Both the position numbers and the translations under genes were made by a program. The notes beneath the pieces were generated by a model. That model ran no database searches. It was not told the origin of the DNA and was given only the letters and a program-made list of their open reading frames with translations. This document shows, piece after piece, positions 7,963 through 9,192 of a DNA stretch of 9,192 nucleotides. Source of the stretch: a virus (Duplodnaviria > Heunggongvirae > Uroviricota > Caudoviricetes); the IMG/VR virus record IMGVR_UViG_2671180366_000013, one strand, 5' to 3'. Position 1 is the stretch's first letter. Each line of letters starts with the position of its first letter.

Positions 7963-8980
7963 TAAATGCCGCCGTTAAAATTTCCGCATATCTCTCTTCA
8001 GAAAAAAGCTCACGCTTGCTATAAATAGTTTGTCTCAAATGATAATATTTTTCATTATCAAGACTAATTAATTTGTAGGCTACTTGTGCTAAATCTTCTT
8101 TATTATTGGCAATAAATACGCCAGGAAAACTTTCTGCATACAACTCTCTAATTGCACCAACATTATAGCCTATCACAGGGCAACCACAGCATAGCGCTTC
8201 AATAGTAACCAGCTCATATCCTTCATAATAGGACGGTAAAATAAGTACTCTGGATTTCTTAAATATTTCTGGCATTTTCGCATAGGGGACAGCAATGCTG
8301 GTCAGAACATTATTTAGCGAAGCAAAATTTTGTGGGGCGGGAATACTTGAAACTAAATGGAAGGAAGTATCTGGCAGATTTTTACATATGTAATACAGAT
8401 CATCTATTCCTTTTCCTTTTTCCAATCGCCCGACAAATGTCACATATTCTGCTTCATTAACATCAGTGTAATCAAATTGTGCAAGATTTATAAAATTTCG
8501 AACAACTTTGATTTTATGTGAATTAATATTGTAAAGCTCATTCCATTCACTTTTAACCTTATTTGAAACAGCCCAGATATTTTTTGAAAATGCTCCAGCC
8601 CAACGCTCATAGAAAGATAAAAGACCACTGCCAGACAACCGATTAGGTTTTTTATTCATGACTGTTTGAAAATAACATTTCATATTGCCATGAGCTATTA
8701 AGATGTCATTCCTATAAAAAGGAGAACAATAGCCATGTGCAATAACTTTAAACGTCACGCCACGTAATTTTTGTAAGGTTAAATAAAGAGAAACTAATAT
8801 TGGATAAAGTGCTACTTGTATTTTTTTGTTACGAATTTTGTTAGAAATTTTGAAGTATGTTTTATCAAGTATAATGACTTTAACCCCCAAATTTTTAAGA
8901 ATGTTACATTGTTGGGCAACAACCCTTTCCACCCCACCTTGCCCTCCTGAACCATTATACGCGGCGATATATATAATCAT
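7949..8980 (-). CDS. Glycosyltransferase, GT4 family (retaining), 343 aa
   Basis: N-terminal GSGGQGGVERVV and canonical E-x7-E motif EGYELVTIEALCCGCPVIG. The ORF track start (9031) is a GTG; the first ATG at 8980-8978 gives a typical GT4 N-terminus (MIIYIAAYNGSGG), has GGGAAG about 10 nt upstream, and forms an ATGA overlap with the stop of the upstream ORF. TAA at 7951-7949. Confidence 0.85.
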   Translation of the reverse strand: MIIYIAAYNGSGGQGGVERVVAQQCNILKNLGVKVIILDKTYFKISNKIRNKKIQVALYPILVSLYLTLQKLRGVTFKVIAHGYCSPFYRNDILIAHGNMKCYFQTVMNKKPNRLSGSGLLSFYERWAGAFSKNIWAVSNKVKSEWNELYNINSHKIKVVRNFINLAQFDYTDVNEAEYVTFVGRLEKGKGIDDLYYICKNLPDTSFHLVSSIPAPQNFASLNNVLTSIAVPYAKMPEIFKKSRVLILPSYYEGYELVTIEALCCGCPVIGYNVGAIRELYAESFPGVFIANNKEDLAQVAYKLISLDNEKYYHLRQTIYSKRELFSEERYAEILTAAFNEKK

Positions 8981-9192
8981 TTTAAAAACTTCCCGATAAA
9001 CGACTTCATTTTTAGCAGAACGAATTGACACTGTCGGTAAAATATAGCATGCTTTTGTCCTGAAAGAAGATTCAAATTATCATTATATTTTTTTAAAAAT
9101 CTATAATTATTTATGCAACTTTCGTAATGATATTTTAATCGATTAGCTGTTCTTGCCCCTCCCGTCGCTTTTCTTGGAGGTAAATTTATTAA
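8977..9192 (-). CDS. 3' end (C-terminal 71 codons) of an upstream O-antigen cluster gene truncated by the window edge; function unknown (candidates: Wzy, Wzx or another transferase)
   Basis: The minus-strand frame with codon tops at 9192, 9189 … is open for 71 codons from the window edge to a TGA at 8979-8977. I checked every codon; none is a stop. The TGA overlaps the ATG of the next gene (ATGA). In DNA this AT-rich a 71-codon open frame is unlikely by chance. Tail reads …KYHYESCINNYRFLKKYNDNLNLLSGQKHAIFYRQCQFVLLKMKSFIGKFLK*. It is absent from the ORF track, presumably because it has no in-window start. Confidence 0.4.
   Translation of the reverse strand, partial: LINLPPRKATGGARTANRLKYHYESCINNYRFLKKYNDNLNLLSGQKHAIFYRQCQFVLLKMKSFIGKFLK

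Follow-up and report, generated by a model that had tools for sequence, protein, structure and literature searches.

An open frame at the right edge of a 9,192-nucleotide window and the family 2 glycosyltransferase gene of the Escherichia coli O6 O-antigen cluster

Genes and features of the window

The window is the whole stretch of DNA that was analysed, and it is 9,192 nucleotides in length. The genes and features that were located in the window are listed in Table 1. The gene order of the complete O6 cluster is galF-wzx-wzy-GT2-GT4(343)-GT(381)-gne-GT4(401)-manC-manB-gnd, and the window is, as read from its sequence, the distal half of this E. coli O-antigen gene cluster in reverse orientation. 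The cluster is located between galF and gnd, it carries wzx and wzy of the O6 type, and it is identical to that of O6 strains. RefSeq labels the adjacent polymerase and flippase genes as 'O6 family'.

Table 1. Coordinates of the genes and features located in the window.
Feature	Position in window	Strand	Remark
gnd	116-1522	minus	
manB/cpsG	1685-3055	minus	
manC/cpsB	3138-4577	minus	
GT4-family gene (401 aa)	4567-5772	minus	
gne/galE	5793-6800	minus	
381-aa glycosyltransferase gene	6817-7962	minus	
343-aa GT4-family gene, RefSeq WP_000587910.1	7949-8980	minus	ATG at 8980
GT2 gene, 3' end (codons 216-286 and TGA)	8977-9192	minus	cut at the window edge
ATGA overlap of GT2 TGA (8979-8977) and GT4 ATG (8980-8978)	8977-8980	minus	4-base overlap
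Spurious 17-codon 5' extension of GT4	8981-9031	minus	overlaps GT2 coding sequence in another frame; open in the main O6 allele only
SD-like element GGGAAG	8989-8994	minus	8 nt upstream of ATG 8980, inside the last GT2 codons
Polymorphic base, G in the window and T in the W-type O6 allele	9007	minus	M277I in GT2; GAA to TAA in the extension frame
Conserved GT2 residues P220, G226, G227 (INLPxxxATGGA) and N243, F247 (NNxxFLKK)	9097-9180	minus	from the 38-homologue alignment

The region of the GT2/GT4 junction is present in 153 of the 5426 complete E. coli genomes, with at least 99% identity in 130 genomes and 95-99% identity in the other 23. YJ6 matches the window with 100% identity at all 9192 positions, as no other complete genome does; several O6:H16 strains are 100% identical from base 19 onward, and the other genomes of the O6:H16 type match from that base only. 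The first 18 bases of the window (TAAGTTGGAGTCATTACC) are an IS1 terminal inverted repeat; the IS1 copy is located between ugd and gnd in YJ6. Nissle 1917 differs from the window at 117 positions, nearly all of which are in gnd and manB. Its transferase genes are almost identical to those of the window, and the final 393 bases of the window are identical in both. The junction sequence itself is identical in Nissle 1917, CFT073, ATCC 25922, and 536-like strains.

The O-antigen-specific genes have a G+C content of 0.28-0.38, and a sharp rise to 0.51-0.55 is seen in manB and gnd. A putative intrinsic terminator of gnd is located at 61-92 on the minus strand, shortly after the stop of this gene, and consists of an inverted repeat rich in G+C (GCCCGGCG...CACCGGGC) and a subsequent T-run. 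A scan of the entire window with Rfam found no family. Other overlaps between neighbouring genes are 14 bases for GT4(343) and GT(381) (7949-7962), 11 bases for GT4(401) and manC (4567-4577), and one base for wzx and wzy beyond the window.

The wzy gene of Nissle 1917 (L001 10944-12287) contains an internal stop and carries a pseudogene annotation, and the gene is intact in YJ6 and LY180. The semirough phenotype of Nissle, in the statement of PMC7571687 that cites it, fits this annotation. The most divergent match is SCU-112 (L003, NZ_CP051725.1; 97.6%, with an indel), where GT2, GT4, and wzy are split by frameshifts and internal stops. This breakage probably reflects sequencing or assembly error, not biology, and the assembly was set aside.

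The open frame at the right edge and the complete GT2 gene

Direct translation of the minus strand from 9192 to 8977 gives 71 sense codons, LINLPPRKATGGARTANRLKYHYESCINNYRFLKKYNDNLNLLSGQKHAIFYRQCQFVLLKMKSFIGKFLK, followed by TGA, and bases 8980-8977 of that strand read ATGA. An earlier note, which was written from the letters of the window, had described both this 71-codon frame running from the edge to a TGA at 8977 and the sharing of the TGA with the ATG of the next gene at 8977-8980, and both descriptions are borne out. Each of the remaining five frames across 8977-9192 contains 3-9 stops. A run of 71 codons without a stop has a chance probability of about 0.002 when this is calculated from the base composition (about 30% G+C) and of 0.00075 when it is estimated from shuffles of the region. 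The list of open reading frames on which the earlier note drew omits those that run off the window and always takes the most upstream start, and for this reason the gene at the edge was unlisted and its neighbour was listed with an over-long 5' end. Two more genes were made too long at their 5' ends by the same longest-ORF rule. For the 401-aa GT4, the listed start was GTG 5829 (420 aa; 4567-5829), where RefSeq has ATG 5772, and for manC it was 4589 (483 aa; 3138-4589), where RefSeq has 4577 (479 aa).

The earlier note had argued that the frame belongs to a cluster gene continuing past the window, and it had proposed a rightward extension of the sequence, an HMM search of the full ORF, and a topology prediction. 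The extension was made in genomes that are identical to the window, and no stop was found just past 9192. Past the edge, an ATG is reached after 215 more codons in Nissle 1917 and YJ6, so the gene does run on as claimed and its full product is 286 aa in length. This ATG is located 645 bases past the edge (window-equivalent 9837), is preceded by AAGGA, and follows the wzy stop after a gap of 5 bases. The genes upstream of it in RefSeq are wzy, wzx, and galF, in that order, in both genomes. RefSeq annotates the product as WP_001291426.1, a 286-aa 'glycosyltransferase family 2 protein' that ends at window position 8977. Among the 153 genomes, none has a GT2 frame that is halted just past 9192, apart from the frameshift-ridden assembly of SCU-112.

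The HMM search of the 286-aa ORF matched Pfam PF00535 (Glycos_transf_2) with an E-value of 2.4e-26 and 93.1 bits (cut-off 23.3) over residues 7-146. The 71-aa window fragment alone matched no Pfam model, and the PF00535 region falls outside the window. NCBIfam gave sub-threshold matches only, to GT2 equivalogs that include PglI, EpsD, and WcaA, and a specific function does not follow from them. The best sequence matches in the PDB are also GT2 enzymes, namely GalT1/CgT (5hea), chondroitin synthase, and a PglI-type glucosyltransferase. A database search collected 780 homologues, the more distant of which reach other phyla. Full-length relatives of 285-286 aa are found in Salmonella enterica (P0002, 68% identity), Citrobacter braakii (P0004, 67%), Enterobacter hormaechei (P0009, 64%), and Morganella morganii (P0014, 53%).

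Conservation was examined in an alignment of 38 homologues with identity down to 26%. The invariant residues include P11, N14, R15, D39, D91, D92, R192, and E193. A DXD motif, of the type that binds metal and nucleotide sugar, was found in FFGDDDSY at residues 87-94 (DDD 90-92), with D91 and D92 invariant, and a conserved acidic segment, YREETD, was found at 191-196, with R192 and E193 invariant; both are located outside the window. YREETD is a candidate for the region of the catalytic base. The window-encoded part contributes the invariant residues G226, G227, and N243, and P220 and F247 in it are almost invariant. The cluster representative of the O6 protein in the database (P0001) has Leu at the nearly invariant position 220, where the window encodes Pro.

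The same gene was compared between two O6 alleles. The W-type allele is carried by E. coli W, LY180, and others, which are 22 of the 153 genomes (LY180, L009 9546-10406, corresponds to window 8977-9837). Three changes, two of them synonymous and one a conservative replacement (M277I), separate the main and W-type alleles in the window part of GT2. This part is real coding sequence, because full-length homologues of the gene are 53-68% identical and the differences between the alleles are mild. Two of the genomes with the W-type cluster, NZ_CP026085.1 and NZ_CM135829.1, are labelled 'DH5alpha' and have a size of about 4.83 Mb, as LY180 does; these labels are probably wrong, because a K-12 strain should not carry the O6 cluster.

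A frame that is open merely by chance in non-coding DNA would account for its shortness (71 codons) and for the lack of a Pfam match to the 71-aa fragment by itself. However, such a frame has a probability of just 0.0008-0.002 in the AT-rich DNA found here, the frame extends into a complete ORF that matches a domain model, and some residues of the fragment do not vary in an alignment of 38 homologues that reaches down to 26% identity. The chance frame is therefore vanishingly improbable, and it was rejected on the full ORF with its domain and on the invariant residues. We are almost certain that window 8977-9192 is the C-terminal quarter of the annotated 286-aa GT2 gene and that the next gene starts at the overlapping ATG.

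The AlphaFold2 model that was built on the 38-homologue alignment has a pLDDT of 92.8 and a pTM of 0.91. The top 50 Foldseek matches of this model in the PDB are all GT-A transferases, mostly of GT2, with probability 1.00. The top matches (CgT, TarP, RmlT, and TarS) have E-values of 1e-12 to 1e-14 and TM-scores of only 0.55-0.64, so that the GT-A core is common and the periphery is different. The fragment in the window is modelled as the end of a core strand (208-218), a conserved loop of lower confidence (219-232, PPRKATGGART), and two long helices (233-259 and 265-285), the first of which opens with the NNxxFLKK motif.

The fragment contains 14 K+R and 2 D+E, which confirms the basic tail that the earlier note had described. 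That note had offered the C-terminus of Wzy/Wzx or of another transferase as the identity of the fragment. The transferase part holds, given PF00535 and the GT-A model, and the Wzy/Wzx part fails on hydropathy, domains, and gene map. The fragment would be the end of a polytopic O-antigen polymerase or flippase in the latter reading, which agrees with the basic tail, the moderately hydrophobic last helix, and the position of wzy directly upstream in the cluster. However, extension of the frame gives a GT2 enzyme of 286 aa whose Pfam matches are to GT2 models only, wzy is a separate gene that ends before the GT2 ATG, and the predicted model is a globular GT-A fold. The topology check for a polytopic membrane protein was negative as well. 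The 19-residue Kyte-Doolittle mean of the O6 GT2 peaks at 0.72, with no membrane-spanning segment in the fragment, and none of its windows exceeds 1.6, compared to 105 windows above 1.6 in the O6 Wzx. A Wzy or Wzx identity is thus extremely unlikely, and it was rejected on hydropathy, domain content (no match to PF14296 or PF01943), and gene map. A protein entry of 455 aa from a relative (P0011) joins the C-terminus of a Wzy to the orthologous GT2, and this fusion is probably a frameshift or a merge made in gene calling.

The O6 GT2 is, on its sequence and predicted model, a soluble-type GT2/GT-A enzyme, and it would be of the inverting type. The basic two-helix C-terminus may help to hold the enzyme at the membrane surface, which is our guess.

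The start of the GT4 gene and the ATGA junction

The downstream GT4 gene had been listed as 7949-9031, where GTG 9031 is the most upstream in-frame start. The earlier note had suggested moving the start from this GTG to ATG 8980, and several lines of evidence agree with the move. RefSeq starts WP_000587910.1 (GT4 family, 343 aa, GT-B) at 8980. Only ATG 8980, and not GTG 9031, is preceded by an SD-like element, and the predicted duplex with the 3' end of 16S rRNA has an energy of -4.4 kcal/mol before ATG 8980 and -0.1 kcal/mol before GTG 9031. The Pfam models Glycos_transf_1 and Glyco_transf_4 match GT4, and Glyco_transf_4 starts at residue 15 of the 343-aa form. The N-terminus of this form, MIIYIAAYNGSGGQG, aligns with MIVYIAAFNGDGGQG of Citrobacter and MKKILIVAYNGCGNE of Morganella. 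In C. braakii and M. morganii, an in-frame stop is located 15-57 nt upstream of the GT4 ATG, and no alternative start is present.

The polymorphic base at 9007 bears on the same question. In the W-type allele, a TAA separates the position of GTG 9031 from the ATG, and the ATG is therefore the only possible start of GT4 there. The 61-nt variant junction with this TAA is unchanged in the 22 W-type genomes among the 153 with the O6 cluster, and GT4 is annotated as intact in them.

Some or all of the GT4 protein could instead be initiated at GTG 9031, which would give a 360-aa form whose first 17 codons overlap GT2 in another frame. The frame is open from this codon in the main O6 allele, and GTG can serve as a start codon. 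Against this stand the missing SD-like element ahead of GTG 9031, the TAA that shuts the extension in 22 O6 genomes with an otherwise intact GT4, Citrobacter and Morganella without an upstream in-frame start, and the GT4 domain model that begins right after the ATG, which RefSeq also uses. We consider the longer form very unlikely. ATG 8980 is supported as the true start of GT4, and the 17-codon extension appears to be an accident of the main allele, because the SD-like element, the W-type TAA, the orthologues, and the domain and annotation evidence all favour the ATG.

The ATGA overlap that results from this start is kept in both O6 alleles, in Citrobacter braakii, and in Morganella morganii. 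The overlapping stop and start are thus conserved in orthologous operons, as is expected for a coupled pair. The position of the SD-like element is occupied by AAGGAAG in Citrobacter and by GAAAAG in Morganella. A scan of 8500-9192 found no terminator-like site, and its promoter-like matches were at chance level. Folding of the junction RNA gave no occluding hairpin, and the junction is less structured than shuffled sequences (z +1.63). Coupling is suggested by the ATGA overlap, the modest SD-like element inside the end of GT2, and the unstructured junction. Ribosomes that finish GT2 would then reinitiate at the GT4 ATG through the overlap, and it is plausible that GT4 is translationally coupled to GT2 in this way.

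The overlap could also be mere packing of genes, with GT4 translated independently from its own SD. The SD-like element is at the right distance from ATG 8980, and the unstructured junction would be accessible without an upstream ribosome. However, three genera with 53-67% protein identity retain the overlap, while the Morganella counterpart of the SD-like element is reduced to GAAAAG, and an overlap of four bases is the arrangement classically associated with termination-reinitiation. Independent initiation is somewhat unlikely on these grounds. With an SD-like element as weak as this one (-4.4 kcal/mol), the sequence does not discriminate between coupling and independent initiation, and translational coupling is kept here as a plausible reading.

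The O6 repeat unit and comparison with known systems

In Wzx/Wzy-dependent synthesis, WecA puts the first HexNAc-phosphate on undecaprenyl phosphate. The remaining four sugars would be attached on the cytoplasmic side of the inner membrane by the four glycosyltransferases of the cluster, and four transferase genes fit a five-sugar O6 unit because WecA adds the first sugar. GT2 enzymes invert the anomeric configuration, and the O6 GT2 should therefore form a beta linkage; it would act on the undecaprenyl-diphosphate-linked O-unit and add one beta-linked sugar. A literature search of limited reach found no published gene name or linkage for this enzyme. The O6 unit of ATCC 25922 consists of 3 Hex and 2 HexNAc by MALDI glycotyping (PMC11148006), and this strain has the same junction sequence as the window.

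Comparison of the clusters hints that the 401-aa GT4 may be the GalNAc transferase, because the Morganella cluster has neither gne nor the 401-aa GT4. If so, GT2 and the two other GT-B enzymes would be left for the additions of mannose and glucose.

Two O6 subtypes that have been described chemically differ in a Glc or GlcNAc branch, and a recent paper (PMC12274568) reports that it found no description of the genetics of O6A against the other O6 subtypes. The two O6 alleles were compared gene by gene for a determinant of the subtype, and the divergence is diffuse, amounting to 0.8-2% for each gene of the cluster and including replacements in each of the four transferases, with nothing decisive among the differences. 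Outside the window, the GT2 alleles differ in three adjacent replacements, P168S, F169I, and V170I, which are candidate subtype differences that the present data speak neither for nor against. GT2 as a side-branch beta-transferase whose allelic differences contribute to the Glc/GlcNAc subtypes is improbable in our estimate. There is no evidence for such a role, because the alleles differ diffusely, by the same 0.8-2% in every gene.

The O6 antigen is medically relevant, being found in uropathogenic and enterotoxigenic strains and in Nissle 1917, and it is a component of ExPEC conjugate vaccines. Four-base overlaps of stop and start are commonplace in polysaccharide operons. The GT2 gene and its boundaries are already known and correctly annotated in public genomes, the identical RefSeq protein is present in about 130 complete genomes, and the finding at the window edge is a truncation together with a start artefact of the longest-ORF rule, with nothing new in it. 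The two corrections restore the full set of four glycosyltransferases for the five-sugar O6 repeat, and their value is that of bookkeeping only. The O6 cluster was sequenced more than 20 years ago (Grozdanov et al. 2002, in the statement of PMC7571687 that cites it).

Among solved enzymes, CgT/GalT1 (5hea), TarP (6h1j), TarS (5tz8), RmlT (8bz4), and a PglI-like beta-1,3-glucosyltransferase (9jma/9jn3) share the GT-A core, the DXD motif, and the N-terminal IPxYN with the O6 GT2. The sequence matches to solved GT2 enzymes have E-values of 1e-9 to 1e-13 with about 20% identity and a large rmsd, and the alignments end at residues 118-185, short of the C-terminal loop and the two helices. The donor and acceptor are not transferable from the solved enzymes.

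The junction resembles known ATGA-coupled operons in the four-base overlap, the SD-like element in the upstream gene, and the absence of a terminator or promoter between the genes. It differs from them in that its SD-like element is weak.

The orthologous GT2 genes are found in clusters of the type wzx-wzy-GT2-GT4-GT-manC-manB. Those of C. braakii and M. morganii have the order wzx-wzy-GT2(286)-GT4(343/348)-GT(380/385) and the ATGA junction as in O6. In the Morganella cluster, gne and the 401-aa GT4 are missing and an additional GT2 of 252 aa is present, and the Morganella and O6 polysaccharides are probably related but not identical. The closest counterpart is WP_001291426.1 itself (CIW80_RS03960 in Nissle 1917 and HXS64_RS09740 in YJ6), where the 71 residues of the window are residues 216-286 and the DNA shows no difference in the window part.
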